Program-made: the position numbers and the translations under genes
Assembly: GCF_019059575.1 (NCBI RefSeq)
Contig: NW_024881729.1
Span: 544,406-608,405, forward strand
DNA length: 64,000 nucleotides
Direction: 5' to 3'
From: Amphibalanus amphitrite
Lineage: Eukaryota
The notes under the pieces: model-generated
What the model saw: the letters and a program-made list of their open reading frames with translations, nothing else
Told to the model about the DNA's origin: nothing
The model's database searches: none
Shown here: positions 1,285 through 63,837 of the stretch, piece after piece
Layout: each line of letters begins with the position of its first letter
Position numbering within the stretch: the stretch's first letter is position 1

Positions 1285-2497
1285 AATATCCTTCCAGGCG
1301 GTGGGGGTGGGGGGGGGGGGCATTTTTTGCCCCCCCCCTTTAGTTTTTTCGATATATCTCGAGAACCGCTGCGCCGATCGTCACCAAACTTTCAGTACCC
1401 TCCCGGGAGCAGCTAGCGCACATGGTGACCAAATTTTTTTTCCAAAGGCTATGATAGGTTGGCCGCTAATGACGTCAGAGTGACGTCATTTTTGCCATTT
1501 TCGACCCAAAGAAAGGTTTCGCGGGAAGAGCTGTCAGGCCTACAGCTTTAGAGATACCGAAAAATGTTTCAGACATAAAAGGCGTGGAATTAAAAGGGCT
1601 ACAAACTGCTATTTCGGTTTTTAGAATTTTTTGGATTTTGACCCCCAAAAATCAAAAAATAGATTTTTTGAATATAATAGCCAAAAAAATCCAAAAAGTT
1701 TTTTGAATTTCGAAAAAACCGGAATATATGTGATAGCCCCTACCGCCTTCTATCAACATACCAAATTTGAGATCGATACCTCTTTTTTGGCCAAGTTATA
1801 GCGAAAAAACTGTTCAAAATTGATGACGTCAAATTTTCAAACTCAATTTTTAGCAATTCTAGACCTCGTAGAGCAAAACAAAGACCACCATTAGACTCCC
1901 CGTGACGAGCTGCATCGAATCGATACCCATTTTAGGCAAAAATATCAACTTTGAAATTTGACCTTTTTTTGACCTGACCTTGACCTGACCTCCACCAGAA
2001 AGTGACCTAAACCGTACCTGATGGTCTTATAACCAACACCATTGAGTTGGAAATGAAAAAGTGGCCATAAAACATGCATCGCATAACCTTAGTAAAGTTG
2101 GGCTCATGTGGTGACCCTTGGTGACCTTTGGTGACCTGACCTGTGACCTGACCTGGTATGACCAGTGACCTCTAATAGCAACATATTTACTAGAAAACTG
2201 ACGCCTTATCGCTGATTTTCGACAAAATGCGTTTTACTCGGTGTTATAGCGCTTTCCCTAGAAGCCCCGTGAACGGTGAAACATTTTATCTTTGACCTGA
2301 CCTGTGACGTCATCGGTGACCCCGAGGTCAATGAAATTTGGTTTTTTTGACAAATTTGACAGGGCTATCGAACGCCGTTTGAATTTTCCGGATCCGTCCA
2401 GTAGTTTCGGAGATACGGGGGGGGGGGGGCAAAAAAATGCCCCCTCCCCCCCACCGCGCGGAAGGTGGCTGGTAGGCCCACCGCCTGCCGGGATATT
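1285..2497. mobile_element. About 1.2-kb TIR element. Termini are CAATATCC(T/C)..GGCGGTGGGGG followed by a G12-CATTTTTTG-C8 hairpin at each end. Internally it has (GACCTGACC)n tracts and TGACGTCA palindromes, and no ORF
   Basis: The left end 1284-1340 matches the reverse complement of the right end 2415-2498. The right arm carries an internal duplication. No clear target-site duplication. Confidence 0.45.
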
Positions 2498-2752
2498 GTC
2501 CTGATGACTAAGCATTGTGAGATCAGGCATGTCCCAGCGAAGAAGTTCATTCAACCTGAATTATCATGATTTTCTGAAGTTGAGTTAAGGGTTGATTTCT
2601 ATTGCACGCTGCATGCATCACAACGTCTTGTGTGTCTGTACTTGTAGGTCCGTCTCATTTTGCTTTCTGTTGCAAAAAATCGTCTGACCACTGCTTTCTG
2701 TTTGGCTGACCCTAGCGGCCTGTCTGCCCGCAGGAAAAAGACCCGTCCCGGT

Positions 2753-3342
2753 ATGAAGGTGACCGGCACCCCTCCGCGGAAGGTGGGACGTCCTCCCAGC
2801 GACTCCGGCTCCAGGCACGCGGCGCGCACGGCCTCGCCACGACCACGACCGACCAGCCCGGCGGCCAAGGCGGCCCGCGTCGCCTCCCCACAGCCGGCAC
2901 CGCCGCCTCCGGCCGCTGCCCGTACCCTACCGAGCAGCCCTGACCGGCCGGCGGCCCCGGCGGCCGCTGCCGCACCGCCGGCGCCACCGCCAGCCGCCCC
3001 CGCCAAACGGGGAGCCTCTCCGAGCAAAACACCCGCCACCGCCGGCCAGTCGGACTCAGGCAAGGCGCCGGCAGCCTCGGCGGCCAACGGGGCGTCACCC
3101 ACTGCGACAGGCACAACCCCCACGCCAGCCGCGGCGTCGGCGGAGGCCAAACCGCCTTCCGACGAGAAACCGGTGATGGTGGCCGGTCCTCCGCCTCTCG
3201 ACCAGCTCTGGAAGTCGTTCACCCCATCCATGTCCGTGGAAATGATGGCGCTGCTGTTACAGGAGCAGATTCGAGAAATGCGCTCACACCTGGCACGGAA
3301 AATGGCCGATACCGGAGGCCAGAGCAGTCCGGAGATCGTCAG
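2753..3342 (+). CDS. Pro/Ala/Ser-rich low-complexity protein, exon 1 (ATG at 2753; ends AG|GTGGGT, phase 2)
   Basis: ATG opens a reading frame that continues in frame through the 230-aa track ORF. The GTGGGT donor at 3343 joins in frame to the acceptor at 3551. Confidence 0.6.
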
Positions 3343-3551
3343 GTGGGTCTAGATTGTAGAGAGTGAGCGAGGGAGGGCGTGGGTACCGGAGGACAGAGCA
3401 GTACTGAGGTCGTCAGGTAGTTAGAGGGAAGGGAAAGAAGAGAACGAGAGGGAAACACTACACGTCGCGAATGTTAATGATATCGCACATCGGCATGTTT
3501 TGCCTGATGATTCTTCATTAGTTGACATAATCCGTGTTTGTCTGTTTACAG

Positions 3552-6500: not shown

Positions 6501-7033
6501 GTCGACTCTCCGCCCAGAGTCGCTCCCGAGTCAGTCCGGCGGCCGGCGTGACTCCCTGAGTCAGCCCACCTCCAGACATGAACCGGGCCTCGGTCATCTG
6601 TCGCGCGACCTCGGCTCGGCGTCGTCACGTCACGATCTACTCGGTCACGCCGTGTCGCGTCACGATTCGGCCGCCTCCCGGACCGACCCCCTGGCCCAGC
6701 TGAGTCAGGCGGCTGGCCGCGCGCAGCCTCACTACCCTGGTGTGTCGGCTGGGTCGGCGGGCCGCCGCAGCTCGCTGCCTCGTCAGGACTCGGCCCCAAC
6801 CGGCGGTCAGTCGGGACTGTATGCGGCCGGGGAGCCGGCGAGAGATGTGCTCAGTGCAGCGCTGAGTGCGGCGCTCGGCGGCCGGCCGGCTGCTCCGGCA
6901 GCGGCGCGGCCGGCACCGCAGCAGCCGCAGCAGCGACGGATCGTGGACAGCTCCCCGTCCCCAGCCGCGCCAGAGAGGAGTAGTGCGGCAGCGAGTGCTG
7001 CTCAGCGGATGCCTTCGTACTACACTGCGGACG
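3552..7033 (+). CDS. Pro/Ala/Ser-rich protein, giant exon 2 (about 1160 codons)
   Basis: TTTACAG acceptor at 3551. The 1180-aa frame is uninterrupted and ends at the GAC G|GTGAGT donor at 7034. It contains poly-Pro/Ala tracts and an 11-aa repeat array. Confidence 0.65.
5784..6440 (+). repeat. About 20 tandem in-frame 33-nt (11-aa) repeats, PSPRQ(E/D)xH(F/L)(S/N)Q, within exon 2
   Basis: Directly visible periodic translation: SQPSPRQEPHF, NQPSPRQEPHF ... NHPSPRQDHHL. Confidence 0.9.
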
Positions 7034-7341
7034 GTGAGTTGGCCCGCTGGAGTGTCAGACGAGGGAGGGCAATGACATAAACACGTCAACACATTGCTTC
7101 GGTCACGGTCATGAGACATGTGGCAGGCGCATATCTCCCGCTCCATGCTTTGGAGATAGGTTGTTATTTCAATGCGACGAGCCTTGCTACATGACATTTT
7201 TGAACCAATATGCTGCACTTAAGACGCTTTTTGTCTATGGTTCTCACTGATCGGCTTTCTTACTCCGTATACGCTCGACGATAGCGGCCAATCTAACGTC
7301 CTCCGTCTTCCCACCTGACGTTACCCGTCTCTCCTCCGCAG

Positions 7342-7542
7342 TGTCCCCTCGGCGTCCGTCGGCGTCGGACGCGCTGCTGGCCGGCCGGCCGGGCGGCGTC
7401 CCCTCCTCGGCAGCGGCGGCAGCGGCGCTGCTCTCCCAGCAGCGCGACTATGCAGCGGCCGGTCTGCTGCCACAGTTCCAGACGGCGGTCACCTCGCAGC
7501 CGCAGCAGTTCCGAGGGACGGCCGCACTGCCAGATCTGGTCA
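7342..7542 (+). CDS. Pro/Ala/Ser-rich protein, exon 3 (donor choice uncertain: 7538 or 7542)
   Basis: CTCCGCAG acceptor. The frame continues from phase 1 of exon 2. A phase-1 donor (A|GTGGGG) is required for the frame of exon 4. Confidence 0.45.
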
Positions 7543-7809
7543 GTGGGGGATGGGCTGGGAGGGAAGTCGGATTGACTTAGACGAAAGTGTTTCCGTTGTG
7601 TCAAAGGCACAGGCCGTAGGACTTACGGTGTTTCTGATTGGGACTTGTCGACCAATATGGTCGGACTTAACTGCCGTATTAAGAATGTTTTCATTTGCCT
7701 GATCTGCTTCAAGGCCAGTTAGCAGGTTGCCAGCTGGTGTCAGTGGATCTCCTGTGCATGTGGCTCATGTCAGTCTCGCCACCCTCCTTTGGGCTTACCA
7801 CCACTGCAG

Positions 7810-10785: not shown

Positions 10786-10984
10786 CTTGGCGCGTTTTTT
10801 GATGGTCATGCTGCCGTCGAGCCGGACGAAGCAGTAGCTGCGCATCTGGCAGAGGGTCTCGAACAGGTCGAGTGTCTGCGTGTAGTTGGAGACGAGCACC
10901 ACCTTGTCGCTGGTCTGCGTCTTCACCAGGGCCAGCAGGTAGTCCAGCACCGACACCTTGCCGGAGAGCTCCGGACGGACGCGT
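10786..10984 (-). CDS. RAD54L: RAD54-like, exon 10 ([44 protein letters not shown])
   Basis: Helicase C-terminal domain, motif IV region. CACTAG acceptor; AAG|GTGGGC donor. Confidence 0.85.
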
Positions 10985-11526
10985 CTAGTGGACACAGGGA
11001 GGGGGTATTAGACACATCAGAAGACACAGACACCCTGCCGGACAACTCCGGACGGACTCGCCTGGAGGACAGGGGCGGGTAGATATTAGAGGACAAAGAC
11101 ACCCTGCCGGACAGGTCCGGACGGACTCTCCTGGAGGACAGGGGCGGGTAGATATTGACACAGACACCCAGCTGCCGGACAGCTCCGGACGGACTCGTCT
11201 GGCGGACAGGCGGGTGCGGACTGCGGAATTTCAGATACGAGTGGACGCGGACACGCCTGGTGGACACAGGAGGGGAGAATGATATACTGTGGTGGTGTTT
11301 GCAGGTTAGTCATTCAGTTGCTTCACGGGATGCCCCTACTTTGTAACCTATACGGACCTTGCTAGTTTCCGACAGCCTCTAATATCGCGAGTCCGTCTGG
11401 GCAGGACTGTCATCCCTGACAAACTCACGGAGTATCTGTCTGAGTTCGTCTTGACTCTCTAACTCACTCTGTCGAGTGTCCGTCTGACTGTCTGAGTTAG
11501 CTCTGCCTCCCGAGTCCCCGACTCAC

Positions 11527-11677
11527 TTTGTCGAGTGTCCGTCTGGATAGAGCTGCAGCAGATGGCGCAGCTCACTGCCCGGCTCAGTGACCTTCTCGTA
11601 GATCAGGTCCGGGTGGTTGCACAGCTTCTTCAGACTGGTGATGGCGGACAGCGCCGACTGAGTCGATTTGCCGTGAC
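11527..11677 (-). CDS. RAD54L: RAD54-like, exon 9 (SALSAITSLKKLCNHPDLIYEK..)
   Basis: Conserved SITSLKKLCNHP block. CGCCAG acceptor; AA|GTGAGT donor. Confidence 0.8.
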
Positions 11678-21779: not shown

Positions 21780-24700
21780 TCGGTAAAGCTGGCGTCACCG
21801 TCGGCGGTAGGTAGGTAGGTTATGTTGTGGGTTCAGTAGGTGGAACTATGGTCATGAGTACCCAAATATAGGAACGTTCCCATTTTTGGGAACGGAGTTC
21901 CCAAATATGGGAACGGGCGTTCCCATTTATGAGAACGGAAGTTAATTTTTCGGCCGTTCGCCCACTAAAACTCATTAGTGCATCACGTCTCAAAAAAGTG
22001 CACGCTAATTTAAGTATCTACTAAGTCGATTCCAGGACAAATCTTCGTATGGCATTTCTTCGTCGCGCAATTCTTCGTCCGCATTTCTTCGTCCGCAAAT
22101 CTTCGTCGGCGCATTTATTCGTGTCGCATAACTTCGTCTCGCATTTCTTAGTAAGCGCAAATATTCGTAGCGCATTTTTTCGTATCCGCATTTCTTCGTA
22201 CGCGCATTTCTTCGTCAAGCATTTTTTCGTCCACGCATTTCTTCGTCTACGCAAATCTTCGTCCGCATTTCTTCGTCCACGCAAATCTTCGTCTGCGCAT
22301 ATCTTCGTCCGCAAATCTTCGTCCCCGCAAATCTTCGTCCGCAAATCTTCGTCCACATTTTTTCGTCCACGCATTTCTTCGTCTACGCAAATCTTCGTCC
22401 GCATTTCTTCGTCCACGCAAATCTTCGTCCCGGCAAATCTTCGTCCGCAAATCTTCGTCCGCAAAACTTCGTCCGCAAATCTTCGTCTGCAAATCTTCGT
22501 CCGCATTTTTCGTCCACGCATTTCTTCGTCCACGCAAATCTTCGTCCGCAAATCTTTGTCTGCGCATATTTTCGTCCGCAAACCTTTGTCTCCGCTATCT
22601 TCGTCTCCGCAAACATTCGTCCACAAATGTGGTTCAATAAAACCATGAAGAAATATCAGACCATCAAGTGATTGACGAATTTAATGCATGGAATGGATGA
22701 TCGAAACTTTTGAAGTCAGGTAGATGAGGTCTGTCAGGTGAAGCTATTGTATTTGGGAGCCGAGAATTGAAACATTCCATATCATTTGTGTCCCGGACAT
22801 TCTTTTTTCGCGGTCGATGAATGACAATACAATCTCTTGTACCCTCGCCGGCATAGGCGGCGGAACGGGGAGGGCACCGGGGCACCGTTCCCCTCTTTAA
22901 TTTGGCCTTTTAACAGTAGCCCTATGGGCGTTGCATGGAAAGAATGGGACTAAAAGTCGGCAGTGCCAAGCCCCCCCCCCCCCCTAATTGAATGTGTTCC
23001 GCCGCTACTGCTCGCCGGACCTATTTGTTTTCTACATATACGCCGGCCGAGGGGGGGGGGGCGGGCACGACCCCCCCCCCCTTCCCCCCATCGCCGTTTC
23101 GCCACTGGTGGAGCTAGCGCGTCGCGGAAAAAAACGAGCGTGTGCGCCGTTACGAGACGCAGAGATTAATACCCGATTTTAAGGCCTTCTAGGTCAGGGG
23201 TCGGCTTACGGCCCGCGGGCCGGATCCGGCCAGGAGGGTGACGGTTCGATCCGGCCCGCGACCATCTGACGTCCGGCCCGCGGCTGGTATCATCGACTTA
23301 CATCGTGTTCCGGCCCGCGGTTCCTTCAGAAATCGACTCCGATATAAAAGTGACTTAAATGTGCTTTGGCACAATAGTTCTTCCTTCGCACACTTCATGA
23401 GTTTATAAACACCATTTGCGGGTGTTTTTGTCTAATTCTACTTCTAGACAAAACTTGCGCGGGCCGGACGTCAGATGGTCGCGGGCCGGATCCAACCGTC
23501 ACCCTCCTGGCCGGATCCGGCCCGCGGGCTGTAAGCCGACCCCTGACCTAGAAGGCCTTAAAATCGGGTATTAACCTCTGCGTCTCGTAACGGCGCACAC
23601 GCTCGTTTTTTCCGCGACGCGCTAGCTCCACCAGTGGCGAAACGGCGATGGGGGGGGGGGGGGTCGTACCCGCCCCCCTCGGCCGGCGTATATGTAGAAA
23701 ACAAATAGGTCCGGCGAGCAGTAGCGGCGGAACACATTCAATTAGGGGGGGGGGGGGCACGGCACTGCCGACTTTTAGTCCCATTCTTTCCATGCAACGC
23801 CCATAGGGCTACTGTTAAAAGGCCAAAATTAAAGAGGGGAACGGTGCCCCGGTGCCCTCCCCGTTCCGCCGCCTATGCCGGCGAGGGTACAAGAGATTGT
23901 ATTGTCATTCATCGACCGCGAAAAAAGAATGTCCGGGACACATGATATGGAATGTTTCAATTCTCGGCTCCCAAATACAATAGCTTCACCGGACAGACCC
24001 CATCTACCTGACTTCAAAAGTTTCGATCATCCATTCCATGCATTAAATTCGTCAATCACTTGATGGTCTGATATTTCTTCATGGTTTTATTGAACCACAT
24101 TTGTGGACGAATGTTTGCGGAGACGAAGATAGCGGAGACAAAGGTTTGCGGACGAAAATATGCGCAGACAAAGATTTGCGGACGAAGATTTGCGTGGACG
24201 AAGAAATGCGTGGACGAAAAATGCGGACGAAGATTTGCGGACGAAGATTTGCGGACGAAGTTTGGCGGACGAAGATTTGCGGACGAAGATTTGCCGGGAC
24301 GAAGATTTGCTGGACGAAGAAATGCGGACGAAGATTTGCGTAGACGAAGAAATGCGTGGACGAAAAAATGCGGACGAAGATTTGCGGACGAAGATTTGCG
24401 GGGACGAAGATTTGCGGACGAAGATATGCGCAGACGAAGATTTGCGTGGACGAAGAAATGCGGACGAAGATTTGCGTAGACGAAGAAATGCGTGGACGAA
24501 AAAATGCTTGACGAAGAAATGCGCGTACGAAGAAATGCGGATACGAAAAAATGCGCTACGAATATTTGCGCTTACGAAGAAATGCGAGACGAAGTTATGC
24601 GACACGAATAAATGCGCCGACGAAGATTTGCGGACGAAGAAATGCGGACGAGGAATTGCGCGACGAAGAATTGCCATACGAAGATTTGTCCGGTTACGTA

Positions 24701-31864: not shown

Positions 31865-32301
31865 GTGAGAGCGGCGCCGCGCTGGGTCTTGCACTGGCGG
31901 CATGCTCACAAACAGTATTACAGCCATGGTGTGGGATTTTGGAAATTATAACTAGCTTCGCTATGTTTAACCATTCATAAACAATCAAGTACCCTCACAT
32001 ATTTCGCTTAGCTTGTAAAAATAATTTATTTTGACACTTGACAGTGGTCTGGTCCATATCAGCGACAATCTGTGCCTCTCGCTGATATGCCGTGCCCCCC
32101 CCCCCCCCCCCACACGCACCAACAGTCTTCCCCTCGCCCTCACAGGTAGTCGTTCCTCACAAGCACTGGCGTCGCTGGCTGGCCCGTGTGACTGTCTCCC
32201 CGCGTCTGACTATGCTCCCGCTGTCTCTGCAGGCGATCGTTCTGCAGAAGTACTGGCGTCGTTTGTTGGGCTGTGTGTCTCTCCCACAGACAGGCCCCAA
32301 T

Positions 32302-34073
32302 CCGACGACCAAATCCGACACCTCGGGACGAAGAAGGCGCCAGGACCGGACCGGGTATGCACCGAACACCTGCGGCACTTCGGACCGACGGCCTACCGGA
32401 CCCTTCTGGCACTCATCAACAGATCGTGGTCCAACCTCGAGACGCCCGCCTCATGGCGACGGGCGACCATCATCCCTATCTTTAAGGCCGGCAAAGACCC
32501 CAAACAAGTGGGCAGCTACCGCCCGATCGCGCTCACGAGTCACATCGCCAAGCTAGCGGAGCGGATGATCGCGGCCCGGACGACCTACCTCATCGAGCGA
32601 GACCGACTGGTGCCCCCCGAACAGGTCGGGTTCCGCCGCGGGAGGTCGGCGGAGGACAGTCTGGCCCGCTTGGTCCAAACGGTTCAAGATGGCTGGAATC
32701 GCCCCAAGCCGAGACGAGGCCCGGAGGATGGCGTGACGGCGGACCGCTTTGTCCTCCTGGCGTTCGACTTCTCCCGTGCCTATGACACGATCGATCACCG
32801 GATGTTGCACCTGAAGCTCCTCAAGCTCCTCCCCAGATGTCTCGCGACCTGGAAATTCCGGTTCCTTCGCGGCAGGCGGGCCCGCGTAGAGGTCAACGGC
32901 GCGCACAGCAGCGAGCGCGTGTTCCGCGCGGGCCTGCCGCAGGGCTCGGTCCTGGCACCGACCATCTACACGCTCTGGGCGGCGGACCTTATCGAGACCC
33001 TGCGGAACGCCTCGGACCGCACGGACGTCCTGATGTATGCGGACGACAGGGCCACACTGAGCGCTGGAGCCACCGTAGAGCTTGCGGTGGCTCGCGCCCA
33101 GAAGTCGGCCGACGCCCTGGCCCGATGGGCAAGGCACTGGAAGATGTCCATCGCCGGACAGAAGACCCAGGCGCTGCTGCTGACTCAGCGGAGCAGGGAC
33201 GAGCGCGGCGTGCAACTCCTGGCGAACGGCACGCAGGTCACCGGTGGCACCAGCCTACATCTTCTGGGGGTGACCTTCGACAGACTTCTACACTTTAAAG
33301 ACCACTGCGACTCTCTGCTGCGGCGGAAGGTCCGGCCGCGGACGGCACAGCTGCGGAGGATGACCGGCCGGGCCTGGGGTCTCCGCGAGGCGCAGCTCAG
33401 GACAGTCGCGAACGGGTATGTCCGGGGAGCCCTTGAATACGCAGCGGGTGCCTGGCTCCCGGCCGCGTCCCCGTCACACGTTCAGCTGGTGGAGCGCGAG
33501 CTGCTGGCGGCAGCCCGGGTGGTGACCGGATGCCCAAGGTCCACCCCCAGGGATCCCCTGCTGGCCGAGGCTGGCATCCCTTCAGCATGGTCCACCAGGA
33601 AGACGCTGGCCGCGCGAACGCTCTGCCGAGCGCTCGCCCTGCCGGAGGACGACCCTCTTCGCCGCGTCGCGGAGGCCGACCCACCCACTCGACTGCGGTC
33701 TACCACCGGCTGGCGACAACTGGGGCGATCGGCGCTGATCGAGGCGGGCGCCGAGGGAGTGACGGTGGAGCCGCGCCTCGAGGTTCCCCTCCTCCCGTGG
33801 ACAACCTGCCGCCCGATCGCCTTCAATCTGGACGTGGGACCCGGCGGTCGTCGAGCCTCCTCCAACGAGACGCGACGAGAGGCCGCGCGGCAGCACCTGG
33901 CGGCGCTCCCAGCCCAGGCCACGTGGATTTGGTCCGACGGCTCTGCGGACGCTGGGGTCAGGCGAGGCGAGGGGGCGGCGCCATCATCTTTACCGCGTCG
34001 GGGGAGACTCTCGAGGTTGAGGTGGTGGCGGGAGACCTCTGCTCCAGCACCCGTGCGGAGCTGTTCGCCCTGA
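32302..34073 (+). pseudogene. LINE RT-domain reading frame (frameshifted relative to the downstream RNase H/CCHC part at 33957-34801)
   Basis: The two overlapping track ORFs (680 aa and 423 aa) together cover RT, RNase H and the zinc finger. Confidence 0.6.
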
Positions 34074-34837
34074 GGGCGGCGCTGGAGCGGGTCCGGGATG
34101 AGCCGTCCCCCGCCCCGCTGGTGGCGTGCTCTGACTCACGAGCCGCCCTGAGCCTCCTCAGCGCGGGAGCGGCCGCCCAGACCTCCACTTTCGGCGCGGC
34201 GATCTGGAGGACGCTGCTGGACATTGCCGAGCGCCGGCAGGTGACCCTGCAGTGGGTCCCTGCTCACTGCGGGCTGGCGGAGAACGAGCGCGCTGACGCC
34301 CTGGCCAAGCAAGCGGCCACCCTGCCCCAGGGCGCCGTGCCCTCGGACGCTCGGCCCCTGACACGGGCAGTTCATCGGACGACCACACGTCAGTGGCGCG
34401 AAAACTGGCCCGACTCCTTTTTCAAGGCTATCTTCGGGAGCACCCTGCCGCTCCCCATCCCCGGAGAGGACCGAGAGGCCGCCATCTCGGTGCACCAGTG
34501 GAGGGTGGGCCACTGGGGCCGCTCGCTCCAATACCTGCACCGGATCGGCCGCCACCCCTCCGTGGCATGCCTGCAGTGCCCCGATAAGCGGTGCCCCACG
34601 GCGCTCTGCGCCGTGTGCCGGGAAGAGGCGGACGTGCCGGAGCACGTGTTGCTCCGCTGCCCGGCCCTCGCTGGCGCCCGCCTGCGGCTAACTGGCAGCA
34701 TTCACGTCGACCCGTCGCGGCTGCGGGACGCCGACCTGGTGGCTGCCTTGGAGGCCGGCTACCTTCGCCATAGGGAGCCTCTCGGCTATGGTCCTCCGTA
34801 AGGAGGTCCCAGGGGGAACAACAACAACAACAACAAT
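32302..34837 (+). mobile_element. 5'-truncated non-LTR retrotransposon (LINE) with RT, RNase H and a C-terminal CCHC; I/R1/LOA-type domain order; frameshifted
   Basis: RT motifs KAPGPD, FDFSRAYDTIDH and YADD. The RNase H block (TRAELFALRAALE) is in a different frame after a roughly 1-nt indel near 33960-33980. CCHC is CLQCPDKRCP..C..C. A (CAA)6 tail sits at 34819-34836. A 10-bp target-site duplication AGGCCCCAAT lies at 32292-32301 and 34838-34847. Confidence 0.75.
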
Positions 34838-34959
34838 AGGCCCCAATTGTCTGACGATGTTCCCTCTCCACCACAGGCGATCGTTCTACAAAAATACTGG
34901 CGCCGCTGGTTGGCCCGTGTTACTCCCCTGTCTGACGATATTCACGCTCTCCACCACAG

Positions 34960-35079
34960 GCGATTCTTCTACAGAAGTACTGGCGCCGCTGGCTGGCCCG
35001 TCGCCGGGTACAGCGGATGGCCAGGGAGCGGGATGTCGTGCTCCAGTGGATTGTGGACGACGCAGAACGGCGCAAACAG
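34960..35079 (+). CDS. IQUB-like, IQ-motif exon (AILLQKYWRRWLARRRVQRMARERDVVLQWIVDDAERRKQ)
   Basis: CCACAG acceptor; CAG|GTCAGA donor, phase 0. It matches the IQ consensus and is the last member of a tandem array of degenerate copies. Confidence 0.6.
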
Positions 35080-37387: not shown

Positions 37388-37796
37388 GTCAGCGGAGGAT
37401 TACTGACGGGTCAGTGGTACTCTAGTATATGTGAGAGAGGACAGCCTGCAGTCGAAGTACGGGGAGCGTGCGTGGGGTTTGGTCACTGGCAAGTCTTTCC
37501 TCGCTACATACGGTGTGAGAAAGGTGTACGACTTTCGCTACCCATGTGTGTGCGAGGCCTACGTGTGACTTATGATCTGGGTATGGGACAGGTTAATGAG
37601 TCTGACACATGTATTTGTTTCTGTGACAGGAGTCTGACTTCCGCCACCTGGTGCTGTCGCTGTGGGGCGGCCAGTCCTGTCTGACATACCACCTCTGTCT
37701 GTGTGTTACAGGAGTCTGACTTCCGTCACCTGGTGCTGTCGCTGTGGGGCGGTCAGTCCTGTCTGACATACCACCTCTGTCTTTCATGTGTTACAG

Positions 37797-37982
37797 GAGT
37801 CTGATTTCCGTCACCTGGTGCTGTCGCTGTGGGGCGGCCAGTCCTGCCTGAGCGCCGATCCGGACCTCTATGAGCTGCTGCTCTGCCGCTGGGACGTGGA
37901 ACAGCCCTGGACGCCTTGGAACTGCGTCCTGCTCACCAGAGACGAGACCGAGGCGCACTACAAGCTCGGAAAGCCGCAGCAG
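37797..37982 (+). CDS. IQUB-like, exon (ESDFRHLVLSLWGGQSCLSADPDLYELLLCRWDVEQPWTPWNCVLLTRDETEAHYKLGKPQQ)
   Basis: TGTTACAG acceptor; CAG|GTCAGT donor. Two degenerate tandem copies of the acceptor plus exon start lie immediately upstream, at 37621-37796. Confidence 0.6.
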
Positions 37983-38278
37983 GTCAGTGATGACACACCT
38001 GGAGGTGCGCGTGCGTTCTTAAAGTGGATGACGATCCAGGAACGAGACGGCTATACCAATCATGATTTCAGTGTCTCGTTATACTTCTCGCGTGACCAGT
38101 GTGTGCTTTGTCCAAACTCTCCCACCTCCAGCTAGCAGTACGGCCTGTAATATATGTATCAGGTACCGGTGTGCTCCTCTCCTTTCTTCCCAGTAGCGGT
38201 ACTGACGAGTGTGACCGTACCTCATCTCCCTCACAGCGGTACTGACCGTTTTGTGGCTGTACTCCTCTTCCCCGGCAG

Positions 38279-38449
38279 CGGTACGGGCCGGAGCTGTGTC
38301 AGCGGGTGCGTCTGCGGCACGTGGCCGCCAGTCGCTACTTCTGCCACCTGCCGGCCATGGTGGCCCGCCTGGAGGCCGGGCTCACGGAGCGCGAGACGGG
38401 GCCGCCGTCACCGGGCGCCTGCCGCCGGCCGGCCGCCGCGCCCGCCTGA
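38279..38449 (+). CDS. IQUB-like, terminal exon (RYGPELCQRVRLRHVAASRYFCHLPAMVARLEAGLTERE..*)
   Basis: CCCGGCAG acceptor; TGA at 38447-38449. It is preceded by two pseudo-copies of the acceptor plus exon start. Confidence 0.45.
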   Translation, partial: RYGPELCQRVRLRHVAASRYFCHLPAMVARLEAGLTERETGPPSPGACRRPAAAPA

Positions 38450-39404: not shown

Positions 39405-42400
39405 TCAGTTGTCTAGCTCCAGTCGCACGATCTTGGTGACCGGTCGTTTGTACACACCCTTCCGCGTGTTCACCTCCACGACGCGGACGAGGCCGTCCTG
39501 ACCGGGGAACGTTCTGGCGACTCTGCCCAGGGGCCACGAGCCTCGAGGCACCGATGAGTCTGCGATCAGCACCATCTCTCCTTCACGCAGATTGCGTGAC
39601 ATCTCCGTCCACTTCTGTCTTGTCTGAAGACTTGGTAAGTATTCTCTGATCCAGCGCCGCCAGAACTCTGTGTTCAGCTGCTGGAGTCGACGCCACCTTT
39701 TTCTGGCGTTCTCGGGCGTGTCAGCGTCTTCAGAGCAGATATCCAGCTGGGTGTGACCGAGCAGGAACGCTGCCGGGGTGAGCGGTGGCGCATCAGACGG
39801 GTCAGATGAGACCGCGGTCAGTGGCCTGGTGTTCAGAAGCGCCTCCGCGCGGCAGAACGCGGTCATCAGTTCTTCATCTGTCAGATGGGCGGCTTCTAAA
39901 GTTCTTCGTAGTGCCCGCTTCGCACTTTTTACCATCGCCTCGCAGCCACCATTGAAATGAGGCGCTCCCGGAGGAATGAACTTCCAGTCTATGTAGAAGT
40001 GAGCGGTTTGTCTCTTGATCACTTCTTGGTCCAGAGCTCCGACTAGCTTCCGTAGCTCGCGACTTGCTCCAACAAAATTCTTCCCGTTGTCGGAGATGAT
40101 CTCAGACGGCCTCCCTCTTCGAGCGATGAATCTCAGGAATGCTCGCAGAAAACTGTCAGTGTCGAGTCCGCAGGCCATCTCCAGGTGCACCGCTCTACTC
40201 TGTAAGCACAGGAAGACGCAGAGGTAGCGTTTCAGCCGAGTCTTCCCTCTTCCCTGTCTGGTCTCGAACGGTCCTGCGAAGTCCACCGCGCAGTGACTGA
40301 ACGCGCGGCAGGAATACATCACTTCAGCTCCAGTCTTCGGCGCCATCATCTGCTTCTCTGGCTTCTTGGATCTCTTGATGCACTCTGTACAAGATCTGAT
40401 GCATTTCTTGACTTCTTCTCTGGCACTTATCACCCAGAACCGCTGGCGAAGTTCCGATATGGTGTGCTCAACGCCGAGCTCGTGTTCACCCTGCTCATGC
40501 ACATGACGTACCAGGAGACGGGTCACTTGATGGCCCTTTGGGAGAAGCACTGGGTGCTTCACATCAAATGGCAAGTCGCTTCTCTGGAGGCGTCCGCCGA
40601 CTCGCAGTAGTCCATGGTCATCTACAATCGGACACAGTCTGCGGATGCTGCTGCTTTTGAAGACTTGACCCTGTTTGCTTTCACCGGACGGGACTGCGAC
40701 TTGTGCTTCCAGCTGTCTTCGCTCCTTGGCAAAACATTCCTGAGCTCGCAGGAGCCAGAATGTCTCTGCAGAAGACATCTCCCGCCTGTCCAGTGATGAT
40801 GATGTGCCGTCGTTGTGTTCATCTGGGCACTCTCCTCTTGTTAGTCTCTTCAGTTTCTCGATAAACCTTAGAACCCACGCCGTCACCCTGACCAGCCTCA
40901 TCCAGCTTGAGAAGTGACTTGGGTGTAGCCGGAGGTCATCTTGAGTTTCTTTGATCAGAGTGCTGTGTACTGTCTTCGTCTTCTTCATCTCGCTCCTGTC
41001 GAATGGCTCTGATTGTAGATCTCTTGGCATTGGCCAGTTTTCTCGCTCTTCCACAAGAAATGCAGGGCCCGACCACCACAGGTCACTGGACTTCAGAACT
41101 TCCAGTGTTACGCCTCTGCTGGGAAGATCTGCTGGGTTTTGATTTCCGGGAACATGCTGCCATTGCTCAGGATCTGTCACTTCCCGAATCTCTGATATCC
41201 GATGCGCCACGAACGACTGGAACTGCTTGACTTCATTTCTGATCCAACAGAGCACGTTGATGGAGTCAGACCAGAACAGCACATCTGATATCTGGATCCT
41301 GAATGCTGCACAGGCCTTCTTCGCCAGTCGCAGACCCAGGAGGGCAGCCATCAGCTCAAGACGAGGGATGCTGACCTTTCTAGAGCGTGGGGTGACTCTG
41401 ACTCTTGCTAGAGCCAATCTTGCGGCAACGCCATCTTCACTTGTGGTCACGACGTAGACTGCGGCTGCATATGCCTGCTCAGAGGCATCTGAGAAGGCGT
41501 GTAGCTTCTGAGCTGTAGCCTTGGAGAAGGGGTGGATGCATCGGGGCACTAATAAAGAGCTCACGCGCTCCAGCTCCGTCACCCATTCCGCCCACTTGCG
41601 CTTCATGTCGGCGGGCAGCTCATCGTCCCATTGAAGACCTCGGGACCAAGTTTCCTGGAATAGGATCTTGCTTCGGACGGTAAATGGACTCATCAAGCAT
41701 AGAGGATCGAAGATGGCTGCGAGCGTCTTGAGACAGATCCTCTTGGTAGGCTTTGGCGTCATGTTCTTCTGAATGGTAGCATTGCTGCTAATGCTCAGCT
41801 TGTCTTCATCCGCATTCCAAACGACTCCAAGTGCATTGGCACGAGTTTGAGGGCCATCTTCGATAGTGAAACTTGACTCTTTGGCTCGCTCTTCTTCTGG
41901 TATGCTGTCCGTCACTGAGCTGCTACTGCTTCTCCATTTTCTTATCTTCATGCCGGCCAACTGCATCAGCTCTGTGAGTTGCTTTCTGGCTTCCTTCGCT
42001 TCATCTTCACTTTCGAATGAGACGAGGGCATCGTCCATGTAGAACGAGTCCTTGATCGTGTTGGAAGCGAGAGGATATCGTGAAGCGTGCTGCTTGGCAT
42101 TCTCCTTCATCGCGAACTGGGCTGCAAATGGTGCTGCAGCGTTTCCGAACAGCCACCTTTGTGCTTCATAGATATCTGGCTCTCTTCCAGCTTCGCAGTT
42201 GCGCCAGAGCACACGATGGAACTTCTGATCACCATCGGGTAGCTTCACCTGGAGAAACATCTCCGCGACGTCTCCAGTCAGAGCGATCGCATGACGGCGA
42301 AATCCCAGCAGGACTTCTATCAGGTCGTTACAGATGGATGGTCCAGGATAGAGTTCATCGTTCAGACTTCTCCCTTCAAATTTTGCAGCTGCATCGTACA

Positions 42401-44963
42401 CTACCCGTATCTTCGTCGTGGCGCGATCTTCCTTTACTACCGGGAAGTGGGGCAAGAACCAGCCGTCTAAGGATGCAGCCTCTCTATCTTCAGGTACGAT
42501 CTTCTTAAGGTATCCTTTAGATACGTAATCTTCAAAATTCGCATTGTACTTTTCTAGAAGAGACCTGTCTTCATTCTTTATCAGGCTCTGCTCAGTTTTT
42601 CTTAATCGGCTCACAGCGTATCCGAAGTTTCCACTCAACTCGGGCTGATCACGACGCCAAGGTACTGCTACCTCATATCGCTCGCCGTCGTACTTGAGTG
42701 AGTCTTGTGCCTTCTTAAGTGCGGACTTTTCCTCATACGAGAGAATCTTCTCATTCTCGTTTCTCACTCCGAGTAGTTCCAAGTCGGTCATAGCATGGAT
42801 GGCGTCTATTTCATCCTGATTGTTCACTGATACGTGAGTCCGTAGCGTCTTGCTGAAGTTTTTCTTCTTCGCATCTTCCACAGGCCCGAAGGCTGTCCAG
42901 CCGAGCGGGGTTTTCACTCCCACAGGTTCATGTGCTTCGCCTTGTCTTGTCTCCAGAGGAAGGAACAGCGACGTCGTAGAAGCCGTCAGTCCGATCAGCA
43001 TATCGATCCCCTGTCTTCGTGAAACGTTGGGGAAAGATATGTTCTTCAGATGGTTCCACTTGCTCTTCGTCATGTTCCAGTCAATTTTGGCTGAAGCGCT
43101 GGAGAGGTCATTAATGACGTACACGCCAATGCTGGTCTTGAACGGGCCGATTGTGGAACACATTTCCACCTCCGACTTCTTCATGTTCACTTGACTGCTG
43201 CCTTCCACTGTTCCCAGCTCAAACTGCTCTGGAACACCCTGGAGACCCAGCTCCTTAGAAGCGGCGTCCGTCAAGAAACTGGCATCCGAGCATGGATCCA
43301 GCAGGGCGTTGACGATAAGAGATCGTCCATTCGCCTTCACCTTCACGGGAACTGTCTGAAAAACGACGCGGCCTGAGTTCTGAGTCGCTGAAGCAGCGGT
43401 CCGATGAGTTAGCTCCCCTTCATGCTGTTCCTGAACTGGCAGTCTGGCAGTAGTATGACTTTGTGTCATCGCAGGGGTAGAATCACCGCGAGTCGCGTGG
43501 AGAAGACTATGATGGCTGCCACCGCATCCTGCCACTTGACATCCTGGGAACTTCCTGCAGCTTAATCCACGATGAGTGCCAGCCAGACAGCGAAAACATA
43601 TTCGCTTCGTCTTGCAGTAGCTGTACCGGCTGCCGACTGTCCACTTCTGGAACAGTGGGCAATCTGGAAGTTGGTGTTCTTTCTCGCAATAGAGACAGCT
43701 TGATGCCCCATGTTGGCTCTGTCTCTCTGTCTTGGTACTCCAGGTCTTCTTCATTTTCCTGGGAGAGTTCGTCTCTTCCTTCTTCATTCGGGAGCTGCTT
43801 GACATTTCTAGAGCTTCTTGTTCGTATTGGGCTTCTTCTGTGAGCCAGGTGGCGAACATCTTCAGATTGTCCTTCGCTCTTTGTCCTTGGATCCATCTTC
43901 GGTAGTTCTTCAGAAATGTCACATGTAGCTTTTCTTTGACGAGGATGTAGTAGGCGGACACGTCGGCCAAATCGCCTGCTGAGCCATGCTCTTCAAGATT
44001 TGTCACCAGGCTTTGAACCCGATCAGCGAGTTCCTCCAAATCTCTCGTAGCGCCCGGACGGACTGGCCTGATGCTCCGAATCTCCTCCAGCTGATGCCTG
44101 ATCCGTCTGCTGACGCCGCCGTACTTGCGTTCCAGCTCTGCCATGGCCTTCGTGAACCCAATGTCTGACGGTCTGTACCTGTCTACTAGTTTCAGAGCGT
44201 CACCTGCGAGACAGTTCTTGAGTTGCATCATTTTAAATTTTCCAGGAACGTTTTCGATGGTTACAAAGGCGTCAAACGTAGCTCGCCAGTCCTCGTATCT
44301 GTTTGTCTCGCCTGTAAAGACTGGAAGCTGTGGTCTCTTCAGTCCGTAGTTCGCCCAGTCGACCTTCACTCTCTCGTTATCTCGTGGCGACCGAGTGCTG
44401 TGACGTCGACCTTCGACTTCAGGTGAGGCTGCTTGCTCTTCTGGTTGCTGAAGCGCATCAGTTTCTTCAGTGACTGACTGATGCGACTCCGTTTCGTGCC
44501 TCAGGGCCTTCGTCTCGTTGCTACGCTTGTCTAGAGCTGCAGAAACTACAGTTCTCACTGATTTATTTGCCAGCCGCAGAGTCTTGGATATTTCTCGCTG
44601 AATATCGTCGTATTCTTCCCACGGATCTTCATCCTCCTCTTGTCCACTAGACATCTTGTTGGCCATCTCTTCCACTATGTTCAACAACTCATCGCTTGCC
44701 TTGTCTAGCTCAGAACCTATCTGCGAGATCTGCGAGACAGTTAGCTCACTGGTTTCAATCAGTGAATGCAGTCTGTTCTGTCCATCGCGTAGATCCCGAA
44801 GTAGTCTCGACTTCTTTCTTCTTAAATTCACTTCAGTTGTCCTCACATGGCTTTCTGTAGAAGTGGTAGTTGACATTGTCCCTTCAGTTCCATCCGTTAC
44901 TTCTTCTTGATTCTGACTGGTTTCAGCTTCACCTTGCTGCGTCTTCTTGCGCCTGTTACCCAT
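39405..44963 (-). CDS. Gag-Pol polyprotein (1852 aa) of the BEL/Pao element
   Basis: Uninterrupted ORF with diagnostic motifs: PQLPVFTGE..W..F..F (Gag DUF1759), CLYCEKEHQLPDC, LLDPCSDASF (protease), FYMDDALV (RT), DASEQAYAAAVY (RNase H), and H..H..C..C plus DFAGP..E (integrase). Confidence 0.85.
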   Translation of the reverse strand: MGNRRKKTQQGEAETSQNQEEVTDGTEGTMSTTTSTESHVRTTEVNLRRKKSRLLRDLRDGQNRLHSLIETSELTVSQISQIGSELDKASDELLNIVEEMANKMSSGQEEDEDPWEEYDDIQREISKTLRLANKSVRTVVSAALDKRSNETKALRHETESHQSVTEETDALQQPEEQAASPEVEGRRHSTRSPRDNERVKVDWANYGLKRPQLPVFTGETNRYEDWRATFDAFVTIENVPGKFKMMQLKNCLAGDALKLVDRYRPSDIGFTKAMAELERKYGGVSRRIRHQLEEIRSIRPVRPGATRDLEELADRVQSLVTNLEEHGSAGDLADVSAYYILVKEKLHVTFLKNYRRWIQGQRAKDNLKMFATWLTEEAQYEQEALEMSSSSRMKKEETNSPRKMKKTWSTKTERQSQHGASSCLYCEKEHQLPDCPLFQKWTVGSRYSYCKTKRICFRCLAGTHRGLSCRKFPGCQVAGCGGSHHSLLHATRGDSTPAMTQSHTTARLPVQEQHEGELTHRTAASATQNSGRVVFQTVPVKVKANGRSLIVNALLDPCSDASFLTDAASKELGLQGVPEQFELGTVEGSSQVNMKKSEVEMCSTIGPFKTSIGVYVINDLSSASAKIDWNMTKSKWNHLKNISFPNVSRRQGIDMLIGLTASTTSLFLPLETRQGEAHEPVGVKTPLGWTAFGPVEDAKKKNFSKTLRTHVSVNNQDEIDAIHAMTDLELLGVRNENEKILSYEEKSALKKAQDSLKYDGERYEVAVPWRRDQPELSGNFGYAVSRLRKTEQSLIKNEDRSLLEKYNANFEDYVSKGYLKKIVPEDREAASLDGWFLPHFPVVKEDRATTKIRVVYDAAAKFEGRSLNDELYPGPSICNDLIEVLLGFRRHAIALTGDVAEMFLQVKLPDGDQKFHRVLWRNCEAGREPDIYEAQRWLFGNAAAPFAAQFAMKENAKQHASRYPLASNTIKDSFYMDDALVSFESEDEAKEARKQLTELMQLAGMKIRKWRSSSSSVTDSIPEEERAKESSFTIEDGPQTRANALGVVWNADEDKLSISSNATIQKNMTPKPTKRICLKTLAAIFDPLCLMSPFTVRSKILFQETWSRGLQWDDELPADMKRKWAEWVTELERVSSLLVPRCIHPFSKATAQKLHAFSDASEQAYAAAVYVVTTSEDGVAARLALARVRVTPRSRKVSIPRLELMAALLGLRLAKKACAAFRIQISDVLFWSDSINVLCWIRNEVKQFQSFVAHRISEIREVTDPEQWQHVPGNQNPADLPSRGVTLEVLKSSDLWWSGPAFLVEERENWPMPRDLQSEPFDRSEMKKTKTVHSTLIKETQDDLRLHPSHFSSWMRLVRVTAWVLRFIEKLKRLTRGECPDEHNDGTSSSLDRREMSSAETFWLLRAQECFAKERRQLEAQVAVPSGESKQGQVFKSSSIRRLCPIVDDHGLLRVGGRLQRSDLPFDVKHPVLLPKGHQVTRLLVRHVHEQGEHELGVEHTISELRQRFWVISAREEVKKCIRSCTECIKRSKKPEKQMMAPKTGAEVMYSCRAFSHCAVDFAGPFETRQGRGKTRLKRYLCVFLCLQSRAVHLEMACGLDTDSFLRAFLRFIARRGRPSEIISDNGKNFVGASRELRKLVGALDQEVIKRQTAHFYIDWKFIPPGAPHFNGGCEAMVKSAKRALRRTLEAAHLTDEELMTAFCRAEALLNTRPLTAVSSDPSDAPPLTPAAFLLGHTQLDICSEDADTPENARKRWRRLQQLNTEFWRRWIREYLPSLQTRQKWTEMSRNLREGEMVLIADSSVPRGSWPLGRVARTFPGQDGLVRVVEVNTRKGVYKRPVTKIVRLELDN

Positions 44964-59599: not shown

Positions 59600-59963
59600 G
59601 TAAGTCAATGGGGCTGTGAGGCTAGTCAGCCTCTTCACACTACCATTAATTATGAGGCCGGTGAGAAGTGCATTAGGCTAGTCAGGAACGTATGACCGAG
59701 GTTTTTACCAGGGGTGGCGGACCGTGCTGACGAGTAATGACTGGTGTGACTGATGACTGATAAGTGACTGATATGACTGTTGTCACGGCAGCTGAACGCC
59801 TCACTGAGGTGTTACTGGAGTTCTGTCACGCCGGCTATGATCTTTCGTGTTTGACGCTGGCAGGAGTTTTGTCGCGACAGCTATAATGTGTAGTTTGTCT
59901 AACGTCGACAGGATTTCTGTCGCGCCGGCTATGATTTGACTAACTGGCTTCTGACGTCGACAG

Positions 59964-60095
59964 GAGTTTTGTCGCGCCGGCTACCTGCGTAAAGAGGAGG
60001 AGGTGGTGAAGGGTGTCACGGTGCTACGGTTCTTCTGGGGAGACGCCGCTTCTGTGGGTGTCGACGCCGTCGACCTGCTCAAGTTCGTCTGTACG
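59964..60095 (+). CDS. NSMCE3: NSMCE3-like, exon 5 (EFCRAGYLRKEEEVVKGVTVLRFFWGDAASVGVDAVDLLKFVCT)
   Basis: CGACAG acceptor; ACG|GTGAGA donor. Two degenerate tandem copies of the acceptor plus exon start lie upstream. Confidence 0.75.
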
Positions 60096-62644: not shown

Positions 62645-62926
62645 CTTTTTGAGCCAGGCCTCGGCGGGCACCAGGTCGTGGTCGTCCATGGCCAGCATGC
62701 CCAGGTTGAAGTAGACCCTGTCGAGTCCGACGGCCGACGGTCGGAGCGCGATGAGCCGGTGGAGCCGCTGGTAGGCGAGCGGCCGCCGCTCCGGGGGCCC
62801 CTCCTCCTGGATAATCACCGCCGAGTTGAGCAGCGCCTGCTGGTGGTCGGGGTCGTGCTCGAGCGCTCTGTCCAGGTAGGCCTGCGCCTCAGCCTGGAGG
62901 CCCTGCTCCAGACACACCACGCCCAG
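62645..62926 (-). CDS. TMTC-like, TPR exon (LGVVCLEQGLQAEAQAYLDRALEHDPDHQQALLNSAVIIQEEG..LGMLAMDDHDLVPAEAWLKK)
   Basis: CTGTTACAG acceptor; AAG|GTGAGT donor. It is preceded, in the transcript 5' direction, by two pseudo-copies. Confidence 0.55.
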
Positions 62927-63837
62927 CTGTAACAGACGAGAGAAGAGGAGGGAGGGGTGTTAGAGCATACAACTCCAGTCCCTGGGCCTGGAGGCCCTGC
63001 TCCAGACACACCACGCCCAGCTGTAACAGAGAGGAGTAGGGGGAGGGAGGGATGTTAGAGCACGCAACTCCAGTTCCTGGGCCTGGAGACCCTGCTTCAG
63101 ACACACCACGCCCAGCTGAGGAAGGGAGAGGAGATGGTGTGTTAGACAACCAAATACTGCGGTAGTCTCACAGCGAAATGAGCCCACGAGAAGAAGCGAA
63201 GACGGAGAGGAGGATGTAATCATTACGTTTACTAATCAATCACGTTTTGTTCTGTTGCGAGCTACACAACATAGCGTCTGGCACACAGCCCGTCAGTGAA
63301 GATAAGCCCACGCCGTGTGTGCTAGGCGGCCACCCCATCTCACATCATTTTCTCGGGAATCGGATGGTCCGCAGCCCCCACACCCCGTCCCAGTCGCCAT
63401 GGCGGCCCGGGTGGTAACACGACGCCTGACGCCGTATCGCGGGCCAACAGACGTCCGGCCATCGGCCCGCACTGCACACAACAGTGTGGTAAAGGAAATA
63501 CTACCACCAGACACCGCCCAGCAACACTGAACGCCCCAGCCCCCACCGACAGTGTGTATACTGTCTACATAACCACAGCCACAACAGGCTCCAACAGCCA
63601 GAACAGGGGGAGGGGTGGGTTGGGCCCCCGGCAATGGATAGTTAAATGACACGCTGAATGACTGGCAGGCTAGCCCACTGGCTGGCTGGCTAGCTGGCTG
63701 GCTGAAATAACTAACGACTAAATGAACAACGGACTGACTCACGGAAAATGACTGCTGTAAGGGAAGAGATCGGATTATCAGTAACACCCATTGACCAATG
63801 TAGCACCGACTGGTCCCGTTCACTCACGTTATAGTAG

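Follow-up and report, generated by a model that had tools for sequence, protein, structure and literature searches.

Mirage-like tandem duplications at splice junctions in a 64-kb region of the barnacle Amphibalanus amphitrite

Introduction

In a 64,000-nt stretch of genomic DNA from the acorn barnacle Amphibalanus amphitrite (hereafter the window), an exon of an IQUB-like gene is preceded not by one 3′ splice site but by three in close succession, each followed by what looks like the start of the same exon. This raises two questions, namely which of the acceptors belongs to the gene, and how a splice junction comes to be repeated in tandem. We consider it likely that the triplication is a 'mirage' minisatellite, that is, a tandem duplication whose unit straddles an exon–intron junction. 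In what follows we describe the triplicated acceptor, identify its authentic copy, and place it among similar arrays in the window, in a second assembly and in other species.

Anatomy of the triplicated acceptor

The preliminary description of this DNA had read the locus as a tandem triplication of an intron end, its AG and the following exon start, and this is borne out by TRF (37622-37851, period 82, 2.8 copies, 93% matches, score 395), by a repeat search and by the sequence itself. The structure, referred to below as array A, is laid out as follows (a slash within a sequence marks the splice junction throughout, except between alternative letters in brackets).

37622..37851, + strand: array A, three tandem units with spacings of 82 and 85 nt (TRF, repeat search, sequence)
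37598..37629, + strand: native intron 3′ end, 5′ of unit 1, GTCTGACAcatg...gtgacag (sequence)
37630..37711, + strand: unit 1, with decoy exon start 37630-37679 and intron-like part 37680-37711; its acceptor AG is at 37628-37629
37712..37796, + strand: unit 2, with decoy exon start 37712-37761 and intron-like part 37762-37796
37797..37982, + strand: authentic IQUB-like exon (ESDFRHLV...KLGKPQQ), whose first 50 nt are unit 3 of array A; donor GT at 37983 (homolog alignment, tblastn, Pollicipes ortholog)

Each unit measures 82-85 nt and extends from the branch-point region (about −32) to position +50 of the exon; within it TCTGAC, which resembles a branch point, is followed by a pyrimidine tract, by ACAG and by the first 50 nt of the exon. 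The exon-like starts fall at 37630, 37712 and 37797, with ...(G/T)(G/T)ACAG before each. The exon part, earlier put at about 58 nt per copy, measures 50 nt; it reads GAGTCTGA(C/T)TTCCG(C/T)CAC...GGCGG(C/T)CAGTCCTG, and any two copies are 96% identical. The intron part (32-35 nt) opens with TCTGACATACC and follows the pattern TCTGACATACCACCTCTGTCT..GTGTTACAG. Both upstream copies possess the branch-point motif, the pyrimidine tract and the AG, and the view of them as perfect decoy acceptors holds. Substitutions and a 3-nt indel separate the copies from one another. Within the window a 26-nt core of the array occurs exactly three times and a 21-nt piece of the intron part exactly twice, with 0 matches in shuffled sequence; the unit has no dispersed copies elsewhere in the window, and neither terminal inverted repeats nor target-site duplications were seen in the sequence around the array.

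The 9-mer GAGTCTGAC (37598-37638, +) stands both at the branch-point position (−32) of the native intron and as the first 9 nt of the exon. Given this double occurrence, the native intron end at 37598..37629 may itself be a remnant of an older unit. The next acceptor may take its branch point from such a copied exon start, both here and in array H (see below), where the decoy exon parts CGGTACTGAC form a near-consensus branch point and the real exon has CGGTACGGGC.

Identification of the authentic acceptor

All three copies of array A translate QESDFRHLVLSLWGGQSCL in a tblastn search. Copies 1 and 2 then enter ...TYHLCLCVTGV and a stop, and only copy 3 proceeds into ...SADPDLYELLLC..., as expected from the earlier reading that the third copy alone continues into coding sequence. 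Use of the upstream acceptors would add 82-167 nt to the transcript and would reach a stop after 29-30 codons, the acceptor of unit 1 giving the translation ESDFRHLVLSLWGGQSCLTYHLCLCVTGV followed by a stop.

A protein search with the IQUB-like exons returned two distant homologs (P0001 and P0002, with IQ and IQUB-like domains), in both of which the alignment runs uninterrupted across ...LIQ/ESDFRHLVLSLWGGQSCLSADPDLY... and the motif is single-copy. A single ...IQ/(E/D)SDFRHLV... is present in these distant homologs and in the ortholog from a second, stalked barnacle, Pollicipes pollicipes, where the counterpart of the ESDF exon shows 90% protein identity and is preceded by an intron at the same position that carries no duplicate. 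Taken together, the homologs, the tblastn result and the Pollicipes ortholog identify 37797 as the authentic acceptor and the upstream copies as intronic decoys. The same evidence supports the view that the upstream copies were no part of the ancestral protein. Because Pollicipes has the intron at the same position without the duplicate, array A arose in the Amphibalanus lineage, at a time when the intron was already there.

Junction arrays across the window

Repeats of this kind are not confined to one exon. A self-BLAST for direct repeats offset by 30-400 nt, from which microsatellite-based, satellite and coding 33-nt repeats were set aside, left arrays that all lie on splice junctions; array F, missed by the self-BLAST, came from the repeat search, and array H was spotted by eye. 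The four further loci for which the same architecture had been claimed are found again as arrays B (IQ exon), C (TMTC3-like), E (MAGE/NSMCE3-like) and H (last IQUB-like exon), to which a RAD54 acceptor (D) and two donor duplicates (F and G) are added. In all, the window holds at least eight junction arrays, at six acceptors (A-E and H) and two donors (F and G). Those other than array A are listed here, together with a LINE that interrupts one of them.

32133..32290, + strand: array B, acceptor and start of an IQ-motif exon in two old copies that match the real one at 71-79%
32291..34838, + strand: 5′-truncated LINE inside array B, between copies 2 and 3, with a 10-bp target-site duplication AGGCCCCAAT
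34839..35079, + strand: array B, the real IQ exon at 34960-35079 and before it the proximal decoy, with an exon-like start at 34877; unit 83 nt
62892..63133, − strand: array C, a TMTC3-like TPR exon whose acceptor is repeated in three units of 94-95 nt; real start 62926
10948..11275, − strand: array D, 4-5 units (58-77 nt) at the acceptor of a RAD54 exon; real start 10984
59804..59983, + strand: array E, a MAGE-domain (NSMCE3-like) gene whose last coding exon has its acceptor repeated in four units of 46-52 nt; real start 59964
11453..11545, − strand: array F, donor-spanning duplicate (59 nt) in RAD54, in the intron shared with D; real GT 11526-11525, decoy 11467-11466
3310..3418, + strand: array G, donor-spanning duplicate (74 nt); real GT 3343, decoy GT 3417
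38186..38290, + strand: array H, 40-42-nt units, ..cag/CGGTACTGAC.., before the last IQUB exon; real start 38279, CGGTACGGGCC

The second part of array B spans 34839-35001, and the LINE that parts it from the first (32133-32290) is a non-LTR retrotransposon with RVT_1 and RNase H domains, a C-terminal Cys/His motif and an (AAC)n tail. Array F sits at the 5′ end of the RAD54 intron whose acceptor carries array D, and the two account for a large share of the 537 nt of that intron. The host exon of array G ends ...GTCGTCAG and lies upstream of a large ORF (3538-7080). Acceptor units copy only 10-55 nt of the exon start and include no donor, and donor units copy the last 14-33 nt of the exon. The decoy AG is kept in every copy of arrays A, B, C, D and H and in three of the four copies of array E.

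Under a generous assumption of 100 junctions in 64 kb, which is an estimate and not a full annotation, the chance that eight of eight arrays overlap a junction is ~3e-5, and the chance that a junction falls in the terminal unit of all eight is ~2e-8. About 10% of the junctions in the window, acceptors and donors together, carry arrays; the sample is a small one, made up of the 64-kb window plus 28 kb. It had been suggested that a systematic process acts at 3′ splice sites. That the pattern is systematic rather than due to chance is upheld by the placement of all eight arrays on junctions, but its restriction to 3′ sites has to be given up, in view of donor arrays F and G and of several donor arrays in Pollicipes.

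Elements of other kinds are also present in the window. At 39405-44963 (−) lies the polyprotein ORF (1852 aa, apparently intact) of a BEL/Pao LTR retrotransposon, with the domains DUF1759, RVT_1, Peptidase_A17, Integrase_H2C2 (integrase zinc-binding domain), rve and DUF5641; the presence of this element points to metazoan DNA. Two inverted arrays at 22038-22628 and 24099-24698, each of ~600 bp and with ~1.5 kb between them, are built of 14-16/30-nt units (GACGAAGATTTGCG and variants); they have a foldback-type look and are found also in the contig L001 of the second assembly described below. Within ORF 3538-7080, positions 5717-6416 (+) hold about twenty in-frame 33-nt repeats (PSPRQEPHF(S/N)Q variants), and the product of this ORF is a large protein of low complexity in which no Pfam family passes the threshold. 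Scans of the window for Rfam families and tRNAs returned nothing, and exact-ORF look-ups were empty for the BEL/Pao polyprotein, for a reverse-transcriptase fragment and for two ORFs overlapping array A.

Comparison with a second Amphibalanus assembly

Part of the window (1-29586) is covered by contig VIIS01000581.1 (L001) of a second A. amphitrite assembly, GCA_009805615.1. At the DNA level the two are 98.6-99.95% identical, with some stretches at ~93%, and judged by sequence they are the same species in another haplotype or assembly. Concatenated RAD54 exons of the window are 96% identical to Amphibalanus amphitrite, 88% to Pollicipes pollicipes and 68% to Branchiostoma, values that speak against amphioxus as the source of the DNA. 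Over the 861 nt of RAD54 that take in arrays D and F, the window and GCA_009805615.1 show no difference. Array G is likewise present in both assemblies, on haplotypes diverged by ~6% (31 of 481 aligned columns differ, including a 6-bp indel between the copies). The copy numbers of arrays D, F and G are equal in the two sequences compared. The annotated RAD54 protein (P0003) reads ...GHSTK/RVRPELSGK..., which implies use of the first donor and the last acceptor copy, and Pollicipes RAD54 has the same length as P0003 at the D/F junction.

Two side observations concern this comparison. Window positions 2493-7560 are only ~93% identical to L001 18764-23858 (99.9% elsewhere) and differ by many small indels, in keeping with reports of very high heterozygosity in barnacles; assembly errors in one of the two sequences may account for some of the coding 1-bp indels in this stretch. 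For the IQUB-like gene of A. amphitrite (L001 1-1761 and beyond; window ~27826 onwards), the GenBank model is 1361 aa long and has RVT_1 and IQUB domains, and the Pollicipes IQUB-like product has 723 aa. The longer model is probably a read-through of the intronic LINE, which would be an annotation error.

Junction arrays in other species

In Pollicipes (L002, L005), no duplicates were found at the junctions orthologous to those of arrays A, B, H and D/F. The genes concerned do carry arrays at other positions. RAD54 has them at two donors, in the form of about nine 44-nt units (CGACCGCGCCAAGG/GTGGGT...CCTCAG) and a 41-nt array; the IQ exon donor has an array of 106-nt units; an acceptor duplicate reads CGCCGGCAG/GGGGAGAGCTGAAGGCC and then CGCCGGCAG/GCGGAGAGCTGAAGGCGGCG; and in PAN3 about fifteen 29-nt units stop exactly at an acceptor. 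Five of the seven arrays touch a junction, the remaining two being apparently intron-internal. Since different junctions are affected in Amphibalanus and in Pollicipes, the arrays must be born and lost quickly. The same scan recovered a three-copy donor-spanning array in an adaptor-protein gene of the amphioxus Branchiostoma floridae, and no junction arrays in ~73 kb of copepod, Daphnia and Lingula loci.

The Pollicipes locus L005 also shows, on its reverse strand (L5rc 4784-5142, ~L005 4859-5217), an extra GC-AG intron, G/GCAAGT...CGGCAG/GC, which splits an exon that is continuous in Amphibalanus (...STKSG/GELKAAL...) and has an acceptor duplicate at its 3′ end; it represents either a gain in Pollicipes or a loss in Amphibalanus. 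In B. floridae (L003 5944-6244), an adaptor-complex subunit gene contains a tandem pair of whole exons, VSLNGHVLQSEIVGAIKMRVFLTGMPELRLGLNDKVLFQNTGS and VSVNGVVLRSEIVGGIKMRIYLSGMPELRLGLNDKVLFEITGS, which are probably mutually exclusive exons.

Unit divergence and the origin of the arrays

The units of an array have not diverged evenly. In array D, the two internal units are 90% identical to each other, 80-84% identical to the real copy and 53-59% identical to the outermost one, and in arrays B and E the nearest decoy is the most identical to the real copy; minisatellites typically behave in this way. Half of the 40 distinct differences between decoy and real exon starts are synonymous (20/40, with ~10-12 expected; P ~2e-4 to 1.5e-3), and 22 of the 40 lie at third codon positions, against 13 expected by random change. 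Constraint on the real copy alone would, by our estimate, make ~42% of the differences synonymous (42.5% in the test). Distal decoys fit this null (15/31 synonymous), and proximal decoys exceed it (12/17, P = 0.018), the latter being a post hoc contrast on 17 codons. Because the differences of the proximal decoys are mostly synonymous, the data suggest that arrays gain units at their exon-proximal end and that each new unit was copied recently from a functional exon allele.

A possible course of events can be outlined from these features. The unit of array A opens with GTCTGAC, and GCCTGAG stands after the last unit as an imperfect direct repeat, a pair that points to microhomology-mediated slippage as the way in which the first duplication would have formed. 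Unequal exchange or gene conversion would then have supplied the later units on the exon-proximal side, with functional exon alleles as the source. The decoys would be ignored by the spliceosome, or their products lost to nonsense-mediated decay, and their non-use is suggested by the homologous and annotated proteins; in either case the arrays would be nearly neutral. Acceptor units have an intron part that begins close to the branch point, and selection is the simplest account of this boundary, as an acceptor without a branch point would break the gene and any duplication that parts the two would be selected against. A cDNA-mediated origin, in which the intron part of the unit would be the end of the upstream exon, was considered and rejected, as the match is weak in array A and absent in array D.

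A neutral model in which duplications arise at random and are retained leaves one observation unexplained, namely that purely intronic duplications of similar size are absent from the window. The slower decay of an exon-anchored copy would give only a ~twofold advantage, and for this reason one has to reckon seriously with a mutational bias at exon borders. The explicit alternative is that a junction-targeted mutational process creates the arrays, as opposed to random duplications being retained; it bears on origin only, agrees with the mirage structure, and is in our view possible though not probable. Such a process could act through repair or recombination intermediates of diverged haplotypes that end at conserved exon borders, through R-loop boundaries, or through reverse transcription of lariat-3′-exon molecules that stops at the branch point. 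It would be in keeping with the placement on junctions of eight of eight complex duplications in the window and five of seven in Pollicipes, with donors and acceptors both being hit, with the mostly synonymous differences of proximal decoys, as captured alleles would show, and with acceptor-unit intron parts that begin near the branch point. However, that boundary is equally well explained by selection against units without a branch point, and Pollicipes has its two intron-internal arrays.

Diversity offers a further argument of the same kind. Barnacles have a pi of ~5%, with introns higher (barnacle genome literature), and amphioxus and barnacles, the two taxa with the pattern, are both hyperdiverse. 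This suggests, rather than shows, a link with recombination between diverged haplotypes, and counted in favour of a junction-targeted process it amounts to two taxa set against three small control loci. A broader proposal, which we put forward as doubtful, is that barnacle and amphioxus arrays alike come from exon-border-targeted mutation, the favoured form being unequal inter-allelic repair or gene conversion for which conserved exons of hyperdiverse genomes serve as anchors, and that the arrays are a major and general driver of intron growth and splice-site turnover in species with very large populations.

Alternative explanations of the decoy sites

An alternative to silent upstream copies is that the decoys are functional, either as regulated alternative sites that feed nonsense-mediated decay or as in-frame micro-exons that add peptide repeats to the protein. 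The retention of AG, pyrimidine tract and branch-point motif would fit such a role, as would the enrichment of decoy codons for synonymous differences, but constraint on the real copy alone would produce much of this bias, and the distal decoys are in line with that null. Unless a further donor is used with it, every decoy acceptor would bring a premature stop, after 43-51 codons in array C, 45-70 in D, 9-26 in E and 2 in H, besides the 29-30 given above for A. Use of the decoy donor would lengthen the exon by 59 nt in array F and by 74 nt in array G, with a frameshift in either case. In-frame micro-exons would suit array B, whose 42-nt exon parts are in frame and then meet a GT, and array D, with 27 nt to ...GGCAG/GT; they do not suit array A, where the 49 nt to the only nearby GT are out of frame. 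Since the homologs, the Pollicipes orthologs and the annotated RAD54 are moreover single-copy, and the arrays are not conserved between the two barnacles, we judge a function of the decoys unlikely. Nested or recursive splicing is also unlikely at array A, because its junctions read ACAG/GAGTCT instead of the AG/GTRAGT of recursive splice sites, and AG/GAGTCT does not regenerate a 5′ splice site.

The arrays might also be read as introns in the making, by tandem duplication under the Rogers model or the mirage-to-intron model of Ebner, or as the insertion of a mobile introner-like element. Mirages have indeed been proposed as a route to intron gain (PMC3087553), and arrays do make up a large share of the RAD54 intron, but the intron before the ESDF exon occupies the same position in Pollicipes without duplicates and so predates the array, and the unit contains pre-existing intron sequence. 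An introner would further have to be reconciled with a unit that is not dispersed in the window and lacks visible terminal inverted repeats and target-site duplications; we regard this whole group of explanations as very improbable.

That the assembler spuriously expanded a single junction is hardly credible even though array A lies beyond the end of L001 at window position 29586, as its copies differ by substitutions and a 3-nt indel, its sister arrays D, F and G recur in GCA_009805615.1 (G on a ~6% diverged haplotype), and the same architecture is seen in the unrelated Pollicipes assembly and in amphioxus.

Significance

Mirages have so far been treated as a curiosity of amphioxus. With about one junction in ten affected in two distantly related barnacles, they would not be specific to cephalochordates, and the hyperdiversity of amphioxus and barnacles provides a testable lead on their mechanism. 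Introns grow longer through the arrays, which make up much of the 537 nt between the two RAD54 exons; the arrays also set competing splice signals beside the real ones and may serve as raw material for new exons or introns. For gene annotation they pose a practical risk as well, in a region whose IQUB-like GenBank model has 1361 aa against 723 aa in Pollicipes.

Comparison with known systems

In amphioxus, mirages are minisatellite-like duplications of intron/exon boundaries in the globin genes BflGb6 and BflGb9, with units of 10-160 nt at 3′ and 5′ boundaries; splicing was normal by RT-PCR, copy number varied between haplotypes, and the way in which mirages arise was described as 'unclear' (PMC3087553). 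Further cases are known from amphioxus PGBD5, TnC and other genes (PMC3902484). In the literature that we searched, mirages are described only in amphioxus papers and none outside cephalochordates, and the barnacle genome papers make no mention of them. The amphioxus Adh3 gene is reported to contain a mirage as well.

Among other systems, mutually exclusive exons resemble the barnacle arrays in arising by local within-gene tandem duplication that includes splice signals, but there whole in-frame exons with both sites are copied, whereas the barnacle units hold part of an exon without a donor, break the frame and run into premature stops. The Rogers model of intron gain (PMC3265369, PMC4974935) likewise involves a short within-gene tandem duplication that is tolerated by splicing, but in it a purely exonic, AGGT-containing unit becomes an intron, whereas here the intron is older and the unit straddles an existing junction. 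Closer to arrays F and G is intron 7 of human F7, where the first unit of a 37-bp VNTR spans the exon 7/IVS7 boundary and the repeat gives rise to a series of pseudo 5′ splice sites (PMC1557585); this analogue differs in being a single locus, at a donor only, in a genome where such arrays are exceptional.

The likeness to amphioxus mirages extends to most of the features that can be compared. In both, the unit spans the boundary, 3′ and 5′ sites are involved, AG/GT signals are present, there are several copies of tens to ~160 nt, the authentic copy adjoins the exon body, and internal units evolve in concert. Amphioxus mirages differ in their host and in the haplotype length polymorphism reported there and not seen in the three arrays compared here between two sequences (D, F and G); the high barnacle density, at eight junctions in 64 kb, is a further difference. 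Arrays A-H all consist of head-to-tail units that contain the boundary, with one terminal unit authentic. Both boundary types are represented, donor arrays being found also in Pollicipes RAD54 and IQUB, many units keep their AG or GT, and boundary units evolve apart from the internal ones, as seen in array D and in the gradient of arrays B and E. On these grounds the barnacle arrays would extend the known mirage class to a new phylum (Arthropoda, Cirripedia).
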